From a virus (taxonomy: Duplodnaviria > Heunggongvirae > Uroviricota > Caudoviricetes), in IMG/VR virus record IMGVR_UViG_2654587746_000006, positions 1-35,411 of that record: DNA of 35,411 bases. One strand, written 5' to 3'. Made by a program: the position numbers and the translations under genes. Below, one piece after another: positions 8,830 to 26,914 of this stretch. The first letter of the stretch is position 1. Each line of letters opens with the position of its first letter. The notes under the pieces were generated by a model. The model was not told where the DNA came from and made no database searches. It saw only the letters and a program-made list of their open reading frames with translations.

Positions 8830-10002
8830 TTACGCGCTGACCTGGCTGGCGAAATTCACCAGGTACTGATCGGTGATGCGCTGGCGCAGCATCAGATTTT
8901 CAAGTGGCGGCACTGGCGTGTAGTCGTAGTCGATGGTGAGTTTTCCGGCTTTCAGCGTGTCTTTGTCATTCACCGACTCGTCCAGCCAGCAATCACCACC
9001 AATGAGATAGCCCTGACTGACCAGGCTGCGCATTTTGGCGCGGATACCTTCGATAATGTCGCGGGCCAGCGACGGGTTCAGCGGTTTGTCCACCGCCCAC
9101 ATATGCGCTTCTGCCATCGTGTCCATCAGTACCTGCGCCGTGCGGGTGTAGTTTTCGAAGGCAAAGAGCGGGTCATCACTCAGGCAGCGGGAACCCCAGA
9201 AGCGGAAACCGTCTTTGCGGATAAGCGTGGTGACGTCGTTCTGGTTAAGCAGTCCCGCATCGGTTGCCGGGTCCTGCAGATCCCAGAACACATCAGCAGA
9301 AATTCCGGTGACACCGTTCACGCCCACGTTGGACAGGCTTTTGTGCCATCCGGTCTGCTCGTCAATTTTGGCGCGCAGACCAAGCGCACGCGCGGTGGCA
9401 TAAGCCGTTGCTTCGGCATTCAGCACCGTGTCCCAGCTGATAAAATCCGGCCAGATCAGCATCCCTTCACGCTGGCTGAAGTTTTCGCGGTAGGTAAGCA
9501 CTTCTTCCACTGTTTTGCAGCCATACGCCGACAGGTAAGCAAACCCGCGCAGGCTTTGCGCCACACTCAGCAGCTCAGTCGCTACGGCTTTGTTATCGTG
9601 ACCCGGCACGCCGAGAATGCGCGGTTTAACGCCGAGCTGTGACTGGGCAGATAACAGGGCTTTCATGCCTGTTTTTTTACCTTCAGCAGTCACTGCGCCG
9701 ATGATATTGGTTGTGGTTTCTTCTTCCGTTTCACCCTGCGGCACACGCACAACAACGGTCACGGGTTTTGCCTGGTCAGCGATGGCATCCAGCGAACGGG
9801 CCAGCGTGCCGGACTCACCCGCTTTACCACTGGCAGTCAGCACATCAGTGATCAGCACGGGTTTATTAAGAGGAAACATTTTTGCATCGGCATCATCGCC
9901 CGTGCAGACCATGCCCACGATGGCGGTGCTCACCGTGGTAATGGATCGGGTGCCTTCGTTGACTTCAACAACGCGCACTCCGTGGTGGTAATCCTGAGCC
10001 AT
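8830..10002 (-). CDS. Contractile tail sheath protein, P2 gpFI-like
   Basis: 390-aa ORF, first gene of the FI-FII-E-T-U-D block. Confidence 0.9.
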
Positions 10003-10077
10003 AAGGCAGTCTCTCCGGTTGTAGAGGGGGTCTGCCTATGTTCTGGTTGATACGCGCAGGGTGCACGCGATGGGGTT

Positions 10078-10095
10078 TGTATGGGAAATGGCACA
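10078..10095 (-). promoter_or_regulatory. Ogr/B-type late-promoter activator site (TGT-N12-ACA dyad) upstream of sheath gene
   Basis: Perfect tgt-atgggaaatggc-aca, centre ~84 bp upstream of the sheath ATG. Confidence 0.5.
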
Positions 10096-10325
10096 ACTGA
10101 GATTTATGAAAAGTGATGGTTAGCAGTGCATTTAACTTCGTTGAAAGGCTGGGTTAATATAATTGGAAAAAAAACATACATAAACGAGATTCAATGTCGC
10201 CTTAGTTGTATGACAAAGCACGGTTGCTTGCTATGGAGTTACATTCTGATATTCTAGAGTAATTCCGTGCACATTTATGATAATAACTGGTTATCTTTAA
10301 CATAAAAAAGAAGAGCATTACTTAT

Positions 10326-11459
10326 ATGAATCTACCATTTTCATTTATTTTAGCATTTTTCTGTATAATTGGTGCATTAGTCGCCTTCGGCTTACCGATA
10401 TTTAAATTTTTAGATGATGACATTCAGCAAAATCGTGCTAACGGTCTTGATGGAATGCGTTTTTATCTTGCATCATTCGTAATACTTCATCATATGGATT
10501 GCTCCTATTCATATTTTACAACCGGGGAATGGACCCCAATATCCCAGTGGCTTTTAACTATGGGAAAATATGGTGTAGCATTATTCTTCATGACAACAGC
10601 CTACTTATTTTGGGGGAAAATCAGGAACAAGAAAAATATTGATTGGGTAACCCTATATCAAAAAAGATTCCTTAGAATTGTCCCATTAGCTTTCTTTTGT
10701 TCATTCATGGGTATTTCTATACTTTTCATTTTCACGGAAAAAACCACATTAACTTTAACCACTATATCCAATATACTGTCCTGGTTTGATGGTAGCTTGT
10801 GGGATAATAAACCACCAGTAACGACTTTTCAGACTCCATTCATTGTGTTAGCCGGAGTTACGTGGACATTGAAATGGGAGTGGATGTTTTACTTTTCTCT
10901 TCCATTGCTATTTATTCTCAATAAAAAACCAATGGAACTGACTATTATTCTTTTTGCATTTTCGTTTTATTTATTGCCGTCCTTTACGAATACTGCATAT
11001 CTTTGGTCATATTTTTTTGCGGGGATGCTCTGCAGGGAGTTGAAAGAAAGAATTATCCTGTCCAAGACTAATGCAAATTATATTTTGATAGCTGCCATAC
11101 TGCTAACCTTTCTGTCAGCCCCTACATTATATAGCCCACCGGAGACTGCTTTCCTTGCTATTATTTTCTTTTGCATCATATCTGGAGCCGAACTCTTTGG
11201 CGCACTAACAACCAAAGCAGCCAAAAGATTAGGCGCGATTAGCTACAGTTTGTATCTCACACAGGGATTAGTACTTTTCCCAGTCTATAACTATCTGAAA
11301 TCCGCAAAAATGATGACTACTGGCCCCTTATTACTTTCGATACTTGTTATGACCTTCTTTGGCATTTGCCTGTTATCTACTTTCACTTATCATTTTATAG
11401 AATTACCGTTCATCAAAAAAATAAATAATAAATCATCAGACGGATTGCATAAAATTTAA
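10326..11459 (+). CDS. Acyltransferase family 3 integral membrane protein (O-antigen/LPS O-acetyltransferase-like); prophage cargo
   Basis: 377-aa polytopic membrane ORF with N-terminal signature NGLDGMRFYLASFVILHH (LDGxR...H of acyltransferase_3); visibly AT-rich; opposite strand to flanking tail genes. Confidence 0.85.
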   Translation: MNLPFSFILAFFCIIGALVAFGLPIFKFLDDDIQQNRANGLDGMRFYLASFVILHHMDCSYSYFTTGEWTPISQWLLTMGKYGVALFFMTTAYLFWGKIRNKKNIDWVTLYQKRFLRIVPLAFFCSFMGISILFIFTEKTTLTLTTISNILSWFDGSLWDNKPPVTTFQTPFIVLAGVTWTLKWEWMFYFSLPLLFILNKKPMELTIILFAFSFYLLPSFTNTAYLWSYFFAGMLCRELKERIILSKTNANYILIAAILLTFLSAPTLYSPPETAFLAIIFFCIISGAELFGALTTKAAKRLGAISYSLYLTQGLVLFPVYNYLKSAKMMTTGPLLLSILVMTFFGICLLSTFTYHFIELPFIKKINNKSSDGLHKI

Positions 11460-11674
11460 AAAATATGAATATATGCTTGTCTATATCAACTACTTCCCTC
11501 CGGACGAGTTATGCGAGTTGGCTCGTTGGTTTTTCCCGATACTGATGTCAGGGAGACAATCAGTGCTCAACACCAACGTCCACAAGCATGAGAATGAACA
11601 AATAAGCAGTACTGTCCAGGAAATGCTTGAAGAAACGGGGTTCTGGTTAGTCAGTGAGTAAAATTTTAAATATC

Positions 11675-11706
11675 CGCCACAGTTACGTTTTGATGATGCT
11701 GTGGCG
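11675..11706. terminator. Hairpin between convergent cargo gene and fibre-assembly gene (candidate bidirectional terminator)
   Basis: 8-bp stem cgccacag / ctgtggcg with ~16-nt loop, T-rich flanks on both strands. Confidence 0.4.
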
Positions 11707-11726
11707 AATATTTATTTTCGATAATA

Positions 11727-12323
11727 TCACTCCTCTGGTTTGCCAGGCCATTTGACATCAGGCGCTGTAGAAAAATCAACTGCATAAAGAGCGTCAAGAT
11801 AATCCAGCCATAGATTATATTGCGCCAGTTCGTCGCCTTTCAAACGCCCAATAGCCGCCTTTCCTGGCCACTGCTTACTATTTATAAACGCGTTAGCCCT
11901 GTCGATGCGGGATTGTTTTTCCGCTTCAGCGGCACCAACATTAGCAGCATGTTCTGCAGCGGTATCAGTTACCCATTTTTCACCATCCCACTTATCATAT
12001 GGTGTTGATGGAGCAATTCTGGTGTAGCCATCTCGAATCTGACCAATATAATCAATTGTCGCAGACTTTCCATCAGCGGTTGAATAAACCATCATTCCCC
12101 GATGATCTTCTTCCTGTTTCCAGTCGGTGCCAGTGAACAGAGGGACCTTTCCGGCAACGACCTCGCCCGGGTCAATATCTGTGGAGTTGCCAGGCATACT
12201 CACGCCGATATGGATATATTCATCTGACCAGCCGGTATACTCTCCCGTCACCGCATCATAATAAAAACAGCGAACATCACCCGGCTCTGCCGCCAGTCCG
12301 TCTGCATCGAAGACAGGTTTCAT
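11727..12323 (-). CDS. Tail fibre assembly protein (P2 gpG-like / Tfa)
   Basis: 198-aa ORF immediately downstream of the tail fibre gene, sharing one base between fibre stop and its ATG. Confidence 0.85.
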   Translation of the reverse strand: MKPVFDADGLAAEPGDVRCFYYDAVTGEYTGWSDEYIHIGVSMPGNSTDIDPGEVVAGKVPLFTGTDWKQEEDHRGMMVYSTADGKSATIDYIGQIRDGYTRIAPSTPYDKWDGEKWVTDTAAEHAANVGAAEAEKQSRIDRANAFINSKQWPGKAAIGRLKGDELAQYNLWLDYLDALYAVDFSTAPDVKWPGKPEE

Positions 12324-13867
12324 TACTTGGCCCTCACAAGAAGATTAAACGAGATATTACGTGGGCGGTTTTCTGCCGCCACAGGTACGCCAGCATTTGC
12401 GGCGTTAAAGAAAGCGAACTGAGCTAATGTCGTCGGATTGCCATCAACACCTAAATTTACAATGTTCTGGGCGCCCCCGGCGATGAACGCGCCATCAGCG
12501 ACGGTATTCCCCACCATCGTAATAAACCCCAGACTGCCAGTGATATTTCGGATTGCATCTCCCTGCGGACTGAGCAATGAACGTCCGCTATCGATACCGC
12601 GTCCGTCATCCCACACGCGCAGAAACTCCCCCCGGGCTTCTGTCAGCCTGAGCCCGGGAAAAACCTTAGCCAGTTTCGGATAAGTCGCTGCAGAAAACGT
12701 CGCACCGTTAAATTTCAGAAAAACCATATCTGACCATTCATCCATGACCGTATTTGGCATTGCAGCAGATGGCCAGAAGAACGGGATCCCGACTGGCGGA
12801 GCGCCCGCGCTCAAACCAAGATAGGCGAGCAGACCAGCAACATCCTTTCCACTCAAATTAGTCAGCGTATTGTCCAGCGGTTGTTTACCTGACAGCGCAT
12901 TCAACATTGTCGTGGCAAAGTTCGGGTCATTCCCCAGCGCCGCCGCCAGTTCGTTCAGCGTATCCAGTGCCGCAGGTGCAGAACCCACCATGGCCGCAAT
13001 TGCCGATTTCACAAAAGCCGTGGTGGCAATCTGTGTATTGTTGACAGACTGTGCCGCAGTCGGTGCTGTTGGCGTTCCGGTAAGTGCCGGACTCGACAGT
13101 GGCGCTTTGAGTGCCAGCGCATTGTTAATGGTGGTACTGAATTTCGGGTCATTGTTAATGGCAGCGGCTATTTCTTTCAGCGTATCCAGTGTGGCTGGCG
13201 CACCATTAATCAGGGCCATCAGTGCCGCCTGAACAAACGCGGTGGTCGCAATCTGCGTGGTGTTATTCCCCTCCGCAGGTGTTGGCGCTTTGGGTGTTCC
13301 GGTCAATGTCGGGCTTTCTTTGGGTGCATACTGTGAATGCGGGTCCGGTGCGGCAAGATGTTTTGCCATCTGCTCATCCACGTACACCTTCAGCTCCAGT
13401 GCCTTATCATCCACATACTTGCGGGTTGCCAGCACTACGGCAGGGTCGATTTTCAGGGTGATATTGTCCGTGCTGCTGGTAATCAGCACCATGCGCACGG
13501 TCTGGGTGCGCCCGCTGCCTTCAGCCAGTTGCGGCTTATAGCTTTCCGGGCAGTTGCCCACGGCAATCAATGCCCCGGATTCATCAAACAGGCCCACTTC
13601 ACGAATCCACCAACCGCCCTCGTTTTCAGGGATCACCTGTTCAGCAATAATCTGGCTGCTGTTCTGCGGGTCGATATAGAGCATATTCAGCGCAGCCCGG
13701 CGTTTCTCATTTACCAGTGCAGTCTGCTTTGCGTCCGGCGTCGGCAATGCTCCACCACCATCCCCCACCGCCATATGGGTAATTTTAAGCGGCACACCAA
13801 GTGCAGTGGCGCTGGCAAGTTTCGCCGCACCAATCTCCGTCAGCAGGGTATAAAATTTTGTGCTCAT
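12323..13867 (-). CDS. Tail fibre protein (P2 gpH-like) with internal repeats and C-terminal tail-collar-type domain
   Basis: 514 aa; N-terminus MSTKFYTLLTEIGAAKLA...; two ~60-aa repeats (NNTTQIATTAFV...LDTL.E.AAA..NDP.F.TT); C-terminal GEFLRVWDDGRGIDSGRSLLSPQGDAIRN resembles tail-collar domains. Confidence 0.9.
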   Translation of the reverse strand: MSTKFYTLLTEIGAAKLASATALGVPLKITHMAVGDGGGALPTPDAKQTALVNEKRRAALNMLYIDPQNSSQIIAEQVIPENEGGWWIREVGLFDESGALIAVGNCPESYKPQLAEGSGRTQTVRMVLITSSTDNITLKIDPAVVLATRKYVDDKALELKVYVDEQMAKHLAAPDPHSQYAPKESPTLTGTPKAPTPAEGNNTTQIATTAFVQAALMALINGAPATLDTLKEIAAAINNDPKFSTTINNALALKAPLSSPALTGTPTAPTAAQSVNNTQIATTAFVKSAIAAMVGSAPAALDTLNELAAALGNDPNFATTMLNALSGKQPLDNTLTNLSGKDVAGLLAYLGLSAGAPPVGIPFFWPSAAMPNTVMDEWSDMVFLKFNGATFSAATYPKLAKVFPGLRLTEARGEFLRVWDDGRGIDSGRSLLSPQGDAIRNITGSLGFITMVGNTVADGAFIAGGAQNIVNLGVDGNPTTLAQFAFFNAANAGVPVAAENRPRNISFNLLVRAK

Positions 13868-25156: not shown

Positions 25157-26914
25157 TTATACTTTGCACCTCTTTGAATAATCTGCAATAATTTCCTCAA
25201 TACCATCAAAAATAACTTTAAACTTTTCAAAACTAATTGTTTTACAATTTGCCTTTATAACCTTTGTTGAAAACACATGCTTACCATATTCTGTTTTTGT
25301 ATCCGTATCATTAGATTTATTAAATGTCTTTCCATCAAGCACCGTTGATAGTACCGTGCTATCAAATAAATCCTCCATACAAGACTCTTTCCCTCCAGGA
25401 AGCAATGGTGTTAATAACAAATAGAGATTGTCAAATATGTGGGTATACCTTGCCTTACGAATAGTATCAACATCATTTGGACAATTTTTTACTTTATCCT
25501 TTAAGTGATTTAATAAATCTTTAGGGCCTGAGTCATTATCAAGAAGCATAATAACAGGGTGCTTTGGTTTAAATTTCTCGAACCTCTTTTTTTGTTCTTG
25601 GTATCTTAATATAAATCTTTTGAAGTCTGTAGCACCGCCAGAAATGTCAAGAAAATAGCTTGTTTTTTCAGTTGCTTTAAAAAAATTAACACGATACTCA
25701 TTTTTAGAGCTATCATCAGAAGAATTAAACAATAAAGGATATGAATTCGCCAATGACTTCAAAGCACACTTTAAATATACACGGTCTGTTTTACCCTCAG
25801 TGAGTATTGTTGGCATTTCCATTCCATGAAAATTTTTATAGTATAGAAAATAACTGTAGGCTTTTTCTCTCGAATTCAATTTTGCAGTGTAGTTTAATCC
25901 ATGATTTACACTTTGGTACTTTTCCAACTGTCTTGCGTTCTTTAGTTTTAAATTATTATATTTATCTATTGAGTCAATAAATCCAAAACGGCCTTCTAAT
26001 TTAGCACATGTACCTTTTTCAATCTTTCCTGATTCAGTAACAATAACAAAAGAACCATCTTTATAAAGAGAATGAGCCATGGCACGCGTTACTTTTGCAT
26101 ATTCTTTGCCAACATTCACTTTTTTATTAACAGTCAACCCAGTAACATCTTGTCGTGATGTTTTATAACAAACCCTTGTCTTTTTATCATTTATTTTAAA
26201 GCCAGCCTTTATAATCTCTTTAATTAAAGTTGGACTTAGGGTTACAGACTCTCCGCCAACATCAGCAATCTCTTTTGGAAATGTTTTTTTATTAGTTGAA
26301 AATGTAAGATCATCAGCATACCGTGAATAATTGCATCCGTATTTCTTTGCTAACTTTGATAATCTTATATCAAGAATTCCACTGATTAAGTTACTTATAA
26401 TTGGAGAGCATGGGCTTCCTTGAGGAAGTCCATTCTGAAAACATGCAATTTGTGCGATCGTTGTAGCAACAGTATTATTTAATCTAAAATCTCTGTTTGA
26501 TAAGAAAAAACCTCTAACACGTCCAAAATTAAAACTATCAAAATAATCCTCAAGGTCTATATTTAGTAGTAGCGTTTTACCTCTATGCCGTTCAGCATTC
26601 GTAATAATTGACTTTTCTTTTTCAAACCCATGAGATAAAACTGGATTAATATTATATTTTTTATAAATTTCCGCACGACATAAATATAAAACATCAGCTA
26701 ATCTACGTTGAATATCTTTGAGCTTAGTGGTAGGTGCTGATATGACTCTCGGCGCTCCGTTTTTTTTAGGGATAGTAAATTGTGTATACTGCGTTTCAGC
26801 TTTTAAACGATAAATAACATCCGTAAGAAAAGCAGTTTTAAGATTCAAGATACTAGCCAAATCTTGCCTGTTAGCAGCGTTTTGTAAACGTTCTAAAATT
26901 GATAGGGGTGCCAT
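25157..26914 (-). CDS. ret: Retron-type reverse transcriptase with C-terminal TOPRIM-like domain
   Basis: 585 aa; RT motifs NAERH (NAxxH), LLNIDLEDYFDS, QGSPCSP, YADD, VTG; C-terminal ~220 aa with TOPRIM-like Glu (ILTEGKTD) and DxD (LLDNDSG); AT-rich; preceded by msr/msd-like region. Confidence 0.9.
   Translation of the reverse strand: MAPLSILERLQNAANRQDLASILNLKTAFLTDVIYRLKAETQYTQFTIPKKNGAPRVISAPTTKLKDIQRRLADVLYLCRAEIYKKYNINPVLSHGFEKEKSIITNAERHRGKTLLLNIDLEDYFDSFNFGRVRGFFLSNRDFRLNNTVATTIAQIACFQNGLPQGSPCSPIISNLISGILDIRLSKLAKKYGCNYSRYADDLTFSTNKKTFPKEIADVGGESVTLSPTLIKEIIKAGFKINDKKTRVCYKTSRQDVTGLTVNKKVNVGKEYAKVTRAMAHSLYKDGSFVIVTESGKIEKGTCAKLEGRFGFIDSIDKYNNLKLKNARQLEKYQSVNHGLNYTAKLNSREKAYSYFLYYKNFHGMEMPTILTEGKTDRVYLKCALKSLANSYPLLFNSSDDSSKNEYRVNFFKATEKTSYFLDISGGATDFKRFILRYQEQKKRFEKFKPKHPVIMLLDNDSGPKDLLNHLKDKVKNCPNDVDTIRKARYTHIFDNLYLLLTPLLPGGKESCMEDLFDSTVLSTVLDGKTFNKSNDTDTKTEYGKHVFSTKVIKANCKTISFEKFKVIFDGIEEIIADYSKRCKV

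Follow-up and report, generated by a model that had tools for sequence, protein, structure and literature searches.

In Shigella, Salmonella, Pseudomonas and Escherichia coli O157, one classical way for a phage to convert the serotype of its host and exclude other phages is to encode an enzyme that acetylates the O-antigen. Described enzymes of this kind include OacB of phage Sf101 (and the near-identical OacC), a stand-alone acyltransferase-3 (AT3) protein of 390 aa encoded in the int-tailspike slot of a P22-like prophage, and the Oac proteins of Sf6 and phiV10, the record of the latter stating that it 'acetylates the host O-antigen; functions in superinfection immunity' (O157 antigen). Here, we describe an AT3 gene in a different setting. 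The DNA analysed, referred to as the window, is a stretch of 35,411 nucleotides from a Caudoviricetes record (IMG/VR IMGVR_UViG_2654587746_000006, positions 1 to 35,411), and it is a complete P2-like prophage adjoining ybjL and the small RNA (sRNA) gene rybB. The gene (10326–11459, + strand) encodes 377 aa with an AT3 domain (PF01757) and no SGNH domain, and sits between FI (tail sheath) and G (tail-fibre assembly). We hold it, with moderate confidence, to be a lysogenic-conversion moron whose stand-alone AT3 enzyme would O-acetylate the O26 O-antigen in the periplasm. The kind of enzyme is thus known; what is new is the slot, where such genes have not been discussed, and the association with O26 and with a tail-fibre tip, which is unreported.

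The family assignment made in a first-pass annotation, which had only the nucleotide sequence and its open reading frames (ORFs) to go by, was borne out by profile search. PF01757 matches residues 40–350 at 93.2 bits (cut-off 31; E 2.1e-26), covering profile positions 3–324 of 326, and the signature LDGMR(45)...H(56) is present as described. A PHROG family named 'O-acetyltransferase' also matches (E 2e-43). The nearest phage protein is OacB, with 31% identity over 372 columns (E 2e-44, 95% coverage). Both proteins carry the motifs DGxR..HH, FFxxT/S-G/A-Y/F-LF and (S/K)RxxR, both have an extra N-terminal helix, and both genes are prophage-encoded and convergent with the gene of a receptor-binding protein. 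Alanine substitution at any of seven OacB residues (R47, H58, W71, F98, R116, R119 and S146) abolishes function (Rajput and Verma, PMC8952252). Six of the seven are kept in the window protein, as R45, H56, W69, F95, R114 and R117, and these six are invariant in an 81-sequence alignment of the family; R45, H56, R114 and R117 align with OacB R47, H58, R116 and R119, that is, with the Arg/His pair of the first transmembrane helix (TM1) and the cytoplasmic RxxR motif. The seventh, S146, is replaced by L142, and the long periplasmic loop differs as well. This variable loop would be a natural candidate for the determinant of acceptor specificity. The slots and hosts also differ: OacB lies between int and tailspike and acts in a host whose O-antigen is the S. 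flexneri tetrasaccharide, whereas the window gene occupies the fun(Z) hotspot of a P2-like myovirus in O26 hosts, and its activity is predicted from sequence.

The protein had been called polytopic, and an AlphaFold2 model built from the family alignment agrees, with 11 helices that comprise the extra N-terminal helix and a 10-helix core (predicted local distance difference test (pLDDT) 94.6, predicted template-modelling score (pTM) 0.92). The model matches HGSNAT and GWT1, and hence the ten-helix fold of the superfamily of transmembrane acyl-transferases (TmAT). A phmmer search against the sequences of the PDB returned no match. The distribution of Lys and Arg among the loops fits an N-out/C-in topology that places the long loop 137–178, after TM3, in the periplasm. 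OacB was likewise predicted to be N-out/C-in with a long periplasmic loop after TM3 (PMC8952252). The AT3 domain is the only Pfam domain, and the chain ends about 8 residues past the last helix. This separates the protein from the AT3-SGNH enzymes OafA, OafB/GtrC family II and OatA, whose AT3 domain, with its proposed acetyl-CoA pore mechanism (PMC12423673), is fused to an SGNH domain. Sf6 Oac and phiV10 Oac (333 and 338 aa) share the Pfam family and the placement of the window gene, being convergent with, and immediately downstream of, a tailspike or fibre gene; however, they lack the extra N-terminal helix and have very little sequence in common with the window protein (Sf6 Oac, 24% across 185 aa, E 1e-4; phiV10 Oac, not significant). 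No match to the region was obtained by megablast against 50,697 phage records.

A large protein search showed a compact family, in which proteins with 98% and 83% identity are followed by many at 55–61% (E. coli, Enterobacter) and then by distant ones. Genomic settings were inspected for ten relatives (P0013, P0012, P0007, P0004, P0038, P0033, P0032, P0029, P0075 and P0051). In at least five types of prophage, relatives at 45–61% identity have a tailspike or tail-fibre gene as neighbour, and two of them occupy the oac slots of Sf6/Sf101 and of phiV10. Thus, P0013 (E. coli, 59%) closes a P22-like prophage, where it converges on a tailspike gene of P22 type (Head_binding plus beta-helix), the slot of Sf6 oac and Sf101 oacB, and P0012 (E. 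coli, 61%) sits between a lysis cassette and the gene of a 740-aa beta-helix tailspike, the slot of phiV10 oac. In two further phage types, the gene abuts a fibre-assembly or fibre gene, as seen for P0007 (Enterobacter kobei) and P0004 (from a metagenomic contig). P0038, from a read-archive assembly, abuts a gene of 842 aa, beyond which come the gene of a Collar-domain fibre and baseplate genes. Two E. cloacae relatives, P0033 and P0032, are at prophage ends near tail-fibre or tailspike genes, and P0032 also has an EpsG gene of Wzy type nearby. P0029 is an orphan next to the trp operon, where other strains have a prophage. P0075 (Klebsiella aerogenes, 33%) is inside a Wzx/Wzy polysaccharide cluster adjoining gnd and rml. 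P0051 adjoins a Wzx-type flippase gene. The AT3 family is therefore mobile cargo that has repeatedly landed beside receptor-binding genes, including two classical O-antigen-conversion slots. A serogroup could not be attached to P0013 from complete genomes, none of which carries it in full. At one Enterobacter cloacae prophage end (L029, 5001–11140), the neighbours of a 56% relative are umuDC, an EpsG gene of Wzy type and the gene of a beta-helix tailspike, a set that we take to resemble the polymerase-plus-acetylase serotype-conversion module of Pseudomonas phage D3.

FI (8830–10002, − strand) carries sheath Pfam domains and G (11727–12323, − strand; 198 aa) matches Caudo_TAP (E 2.5e-27), so that the placement between tail sheath and fibre-assembly genes holds, as does the strand opposite to both. 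The FI-G interval (10003–11726, 1724 bp) contains a single long ORF, and the record of P2 has fun(Z) in the same slot, divergent from FI, in agreement with the first-pass annotation. Fun(Z) of P2 resembles the window gene in this G-FI slot, in its orientation divergent from the late promoter pF and in being non-essential lysogenic-conversion cargo. The P2 record annotates it as blocking T5 growth when cloned, and in sequence it is unrelated: the window protein gave no significant BLASTP match to the 420 residues of Fun(Z). Among P2-like phages, fun(Z) is a locus recognised as a hotspot of diversity and defence (PMC9519451; bioRxiv 10.1101/2024.10.15.618418), and Rousset et al. (PMC9122126) treated the other P2 hotspot. 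These three reports and the further literature searched make no mention of an acyltransferase in the fun(Z) hotspot, and neither an OacB-like enzyme in this hotspot of E. coli P2-like prophages nor any O26-linked O-acetyltransferase is described in the literature searched.

The gene has the character of a moron. The slot is empty in the P2-like prophages of S88, E7-1N7 and MEI005, where the FI-G gap is 134 bp and the flanks are 94–96% identical, and the cargo deviates in guanine-plus-cytosine (GC) content: 0.357 in the gene and 0.325 in the region upstream, against 0.568 in FI and 0.549 in the N-terminal part of the fibre gene H. This upholds the description of the gene as AT-rich. The variable part does not, however, coincide with the FI-G interval that had been delimited as cargo. 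The range 10003–11726 is indeed the whole of that interval, but its first 95 bases (10003–10097, − strand) are conserved P2 backbone upstream of FI and the place of pF, 96–100% identical across another 58 E. coli genomes. By pairwise BLAST, the module's left break falls exactly at 10097/10098, just after a TGT-N12-ACA dyad (10079–10096; 77–94 bp upstream of FI), and the right break at about 12811/12812, inside H near codon 352. The dyad is at the place equivalent to the pF activator-binding site that the P2 record annotates 70–97 bp upstream of FI. The conserved backbone stops one base past the dyad, and the cargo junction abuts this late-promoter control site.

The exchangeable module is thus 10098–12811 and consists of the acyltransferase gene, a 62-aa ORF, a hairpin, G and the distal tip of H; it is larger than the stretch delimited in the first-pass annotation. 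Its right-hand part includes the H tip (residues ~353–514; 12323–12811, − strand). Residues 1–352 of H are 95% identical to those of CFT073 H, whereas the tip and G are not shared. By megablast against 5426 complete E. coli genomes, the G/H-tip segment is in exactly the five genomes that carry the acyltransferase gene. The tip is 47–55% identical to the side-tail-fibre tips of mEp043, mEp213 and HK97. A likeness to fibre tips of known O26 phages was considered and rejected, the tip resembling generic side-tail-fibre tips of lambdoid phages. Nor do the AT3 relatives travel with related fibre tips; the sole match was the generic C-terminal TAP domain of G.

A second AT3 gene has reached the same slot. 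The CFT073-type P2-like prophage encodes WP_000817508.1, which has the FI-G slot, the orientation and the Pfam family (E 2.7e-40) of the window gene and likewise comes with a G allele and an H tip of its own. It is nevertheless a different protein, of 343 aa, lacking the extra N-terminal helix and with 27% identity to the window protein over 88 N-terminal residues. It occurs in nine complete genomes, none of which is among the five carriers of the window module. The FI-G slot thus seems to collect AT3 genes repeatedly. In CFT073, the AT3 gene (L014, 4214–5245) and the 3' end of the accompanying G allele overlap. The P2-like phage ev239 has another AT3 gene, adjoining int.

Among the 5426 genomes, the five carriers of the module are FDN-24, FDN-9, DEC9B, F2_407_2_2 and 7_33_46A. 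FDN-24 and FDN-9 are chicken strains of 4.8 Mb with the prophage adjoining ybjL; the other three are of human and bovine origin and of 5.4–5.75 Mb, and in DEC9B the prophage adjoins ssrA. Two integration sites, ybjL/rybB and ssrA, are therefore represented. All five are genotypically O26, with O26-family wzx and wzy, fnlA/wbjC/wecB and rfbBDAC, and DEC9B is O26:H11 sequence type 29 (PMC5592225). The O26 wzy gene is in 109 of the 5426 genomes, and carriage by O26 strains only has a probability of 3e-9 if the five are counted as independent and of 4e-4 if they are counted as two lineages. The prophage backbone has no such restriction: near-identical flanks are found in CFT073, S88 and others, with different cargo or none. 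The alleles of the window and DEC9B differ by 1.7% in DNA, with 9 synonymous and 5 non-synonymous codons, and the DEC9B allele has a +1 frameshift, in a run of A near its 3' end, that alters no more than the final 12 residues, which are cytoplasmic. The FDN-24 copy of the locus (L001, 9663–15565) has been rearranged and has decayed, with a frameshift in the tube gene, loss of the tail genes E to D, and a truncated H fused to capsid genes; the acyltransferase gene, the 62-aa ORF and G are nevertheless intact at 99.8% identity. The same strain has, by sbcB (L025, 1–13730), a P22-like prophage remnant with a tailspike gene and a truncated gtrA, a second and decayed O-antigen-modification locus.

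How might such an enzyme work? Following the mechanism proposed for its family, an acyl group, most likely acetyl from cytoplasmic acetyl-CoA, would be taken through the 10-helix pore (R45/H56, R114-x-x-R117) and passed, at the periplasmic face, to a hydroxyl group on a sugar of the O-antigen made by the Wzx/Wzy system of the host. The acceptor in the known carriers would be the O26 repeat, as an undecaprenyl-diphosphate-linked unit or as growing polymer; its sugars are rhamnose (Rha), N-acetylfucosamine (FucNAc) and N-acetylglucosamine (GlcNAc) (PMC7685785). If the gene is expressed in the lysogen, the cell surface would be changed, so that adsorption of O-antigen-dependent phages would be blocked or altered and the O epitope changed. 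By analogy with Oac, OacB and phiV10 Oac, the consequences would be an altered O epitope and less adsorption of O-antigen-dependent phages. The gene would have been acquired at the fun(Z) hotspot in one exchangeable block with the tail-fibre tip and the chaperone G.

We consider O-antigen acetylation, with lysogenic conversion or superinfection exclusion as its outcome, as the first-pass annotation had suggested, to be the best-supported activity because the nearest characterised relative is OacB, because close relatives occupy the conversion slots of P22-like and phiV10-like prophages, because a more remote relative, P0075, is encoded within a polysaccharide cluster of Wzx/Wzy type, and because carriage is restricted to O26 strains. 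Since the gene is related to phage enzymes that acetylate the O-antigen, travels with a unique fibre tip and was found only in O26 E. coli, it is most likely an ordinary, previously undescribed surface-converting gene.

Several points weigh against this reading and temper our confidence. The five carriers go back to no more than two or three independent lineages, and the 109 O26 genomes reflect heavy sequencing of this serogroup. In one carrier, 7_33_46A, the O26 wzx flippase gene (L027, 5776–7037) is annotated as frameshifted; if this frameshift is real, the strain may make little O-antigen. The O26 O-polysaccharide structure of Manca et al. (1996) reportedly has no O-acetyl group, although the strains used for it may simply have lacked the window prophage. 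At 31% identity to OacB, the acceptor is not readable from the sequence, and O26 stays a putative one. Several records of the mEp043, mEp213 and HK97 relatives of the fibre tip give K-12 as host, and K-12 makes no O-antigen. There is thus no support for modification of the phage's own receptor by the enzyme, because the linked tip resembles the fibres of phages with K-12 hosts that lack O-antigen. Finally, AT-rich foreign genes are often silenced in E. coli, and the claim that the gene has a promoter of its own found little backing: a consensus scan of the presumed promoter region (10098–10325, + strand; GC 0.325) gave no + strand sigma-70 match of at least 9/12, the best relaxed matches reaching 8/12. 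A purine-rich AAGAAGAG stands 10–17 nt before the acyltransferase ATG.

Downstream of the gene, the + strand cargo unit extends through a 62-aa ORF (11473–11661, + strand; GC 0.455), which matches phrog_36550 over its full length (E 2.4e-41) and is 98% conserved in DEC9B and FDN-24. Residues 29–59 match Pfam DinI at E 0.043, and tblastn aligns residues 31–62 with phage DinI or 'virulence protein' genes. It is probably a degenerate or shortened dinI-family gene, with about 30 DinI-like C-terminal residues, that was co-transferred with the acyltransferase gene. The terminator-like hairpin that had been placed at the 3' end of the gene is real, with 16-nt arms flanked by A/T runs (11667–11714), but it stands 208 nt past the stop codon, beyond the 62-aa ORF, between the convergent cargo unit and G. 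Its folding energy is −20.5 kcal/mol (z −4.1) on the + strand and −21.9 kcal/mol (z −7.2) on the − strand, and a bidirectional terminator is plausible. Another terminator-like hairpin with a T-run, suggested by the consensus scan at 11503–11527 inside the 62-aa ORF, was rejected, as it folds no better than shuffled sequence (z −0.6). A scan of the acyltransferase region with Rfam detected no RNA element.

Three other accounts of the gene deserve comparison with conversion of the O26 antigen. The enzyme could acylate another envelope glycan, namely the enterobacterial common antigen, the lipopolysaccharide core, colanic acid or another capsule, osmoregulated periplasmic glucans or peptidoglycan, which would still make the gene a surface-modifying moron. 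AT3 proteins have many glycan acceptors, the K-12 proteins WecH, an O-acetyltransferase of the enterobacterial common antigen, and OpgC, a succinyltransferase of osmoregulated periplasmic glucans, belong to the same Pfam family, and the P0075 locus, being of the Klebsiella cps/O type, could serve a capsule instead of an O-antigen. The fibre tip points the same way, the phages that it resembles using core or outer-membrane protein receptors on K-12, as does the O26 structure said to be free of O-acetyl groups. We nonetheless find such an acceptor unlikely. WecH is marginally similar to the window protein (BLASTP E 0.03 across 67 aa; family profile 1.9e-12), against 2e-44 and 2e-107 for OacB with the same queries, OpgC gives no match, no NCBIfam equivalog model matches the window protein, and the absence of an SGNH domain sets it apart from the peptidoglycan enzyme OatA. 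Close relatives, moreover, adjoin beta-helix tailspikes of the O-antigen type, and restriction to O26 would go unexplained if the acceptor were common to all E. coli.

It is more doubtful still that the gene is a silent or decaying passenger, dragged in by the exchange of the fibre tip and without effect on the lysogen. The lack of a clear promoter, the neighbouring dinI-like remnant, the frameshift in DEC9B and the degraded state of the FDN-24 prophage would all suit a passenger. Against this, a frame of 377 codons stays open in AT-rich DNA where a stop is expected every ~15 codons (chance ~7e-12 at the local base composition), the core residues that are both invariant in the family and critical in OacB are all kept, and the DEC9B frameshift swaps nothing beyond the cytoplasmic end of the protein. 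The 9 synonymous and 5 non-synonymous codon differences between two diverged alleles, and retention in two lineages at two attachment sites, also speak against a passenger. The last account, an intracellular or abortive anti-phage defence gene like other fun(Z) cargo, with no part for surface glycans, borrows its appeal from the locus, which is a defence hotspot, and from a retron that the same prophage has in its other hotspot; we regard it as very improbable. PADLOC gave no match for the window protein at E ≤0.01, Fun(Z) is dissimilar, the AT3 enzyme is complete and has its catalytic motifs, and its relatives travel with receptor-binding genes, not defence islands. Conversion of the O26 antigen is thus the reading that we prefer.

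Two further elements of the window were noted. The RybB sRNA gene (2700–2778, + strand; Rfam RF00110, 105 bits) follows ybjL and directly precedes the ogr-side end of the prophage, and the prophage attachment site is probably at or just 3' of the end of rybB. The retron is represented by a 585-aa protein with a retron-type reverse transcriptase and a Toprim domain (25157–26914, − strand; PADLOC RT-Toprim_I-C, E 3.5e-223). This cargo is also AT-rich (GC 0.31–0.34) and occupies the old/tin place, with the portal gene on one side and replication genes on the other. No msr/msd RNA was located for it, Rfam giving no match there.

What would these observations mean for P2-like prophages and their hosts? 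The fibre-tip linkage indicates that the unit of exchange at the fun(Z) hotspot can include the receptor-binding end of H. A bolder proposal, which we put forward tentatively, is that the block 10098–12811 serves P2-like phages as an exchangeable cassette, specific to O26, for 'host range plus surface conversion', whose AT3 enzyme would yield a chemically undescribed O-acetylated O26 variant and so alter O26 serology and phage susceptibility in a subset of strains. If surface conversion by this gene is true, it would help to explain why surface-modifying cargo is found alongside intracellular defence cargo in P2 hotspots. The reading also gives a directly testable prediction, an O-acetylated O26 variant. 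O26 is the commonest non-O157 serogroup among E. coli that make Shiga toxin (STEC) and a major serogroup of STEC and enteropathogenic E. coli; an acetylated variant, if true, would matter for O-antigen-based diagnostics and glycoconjugate vaccines, and would bear on the choice of therapeutic or biocontrol phages.

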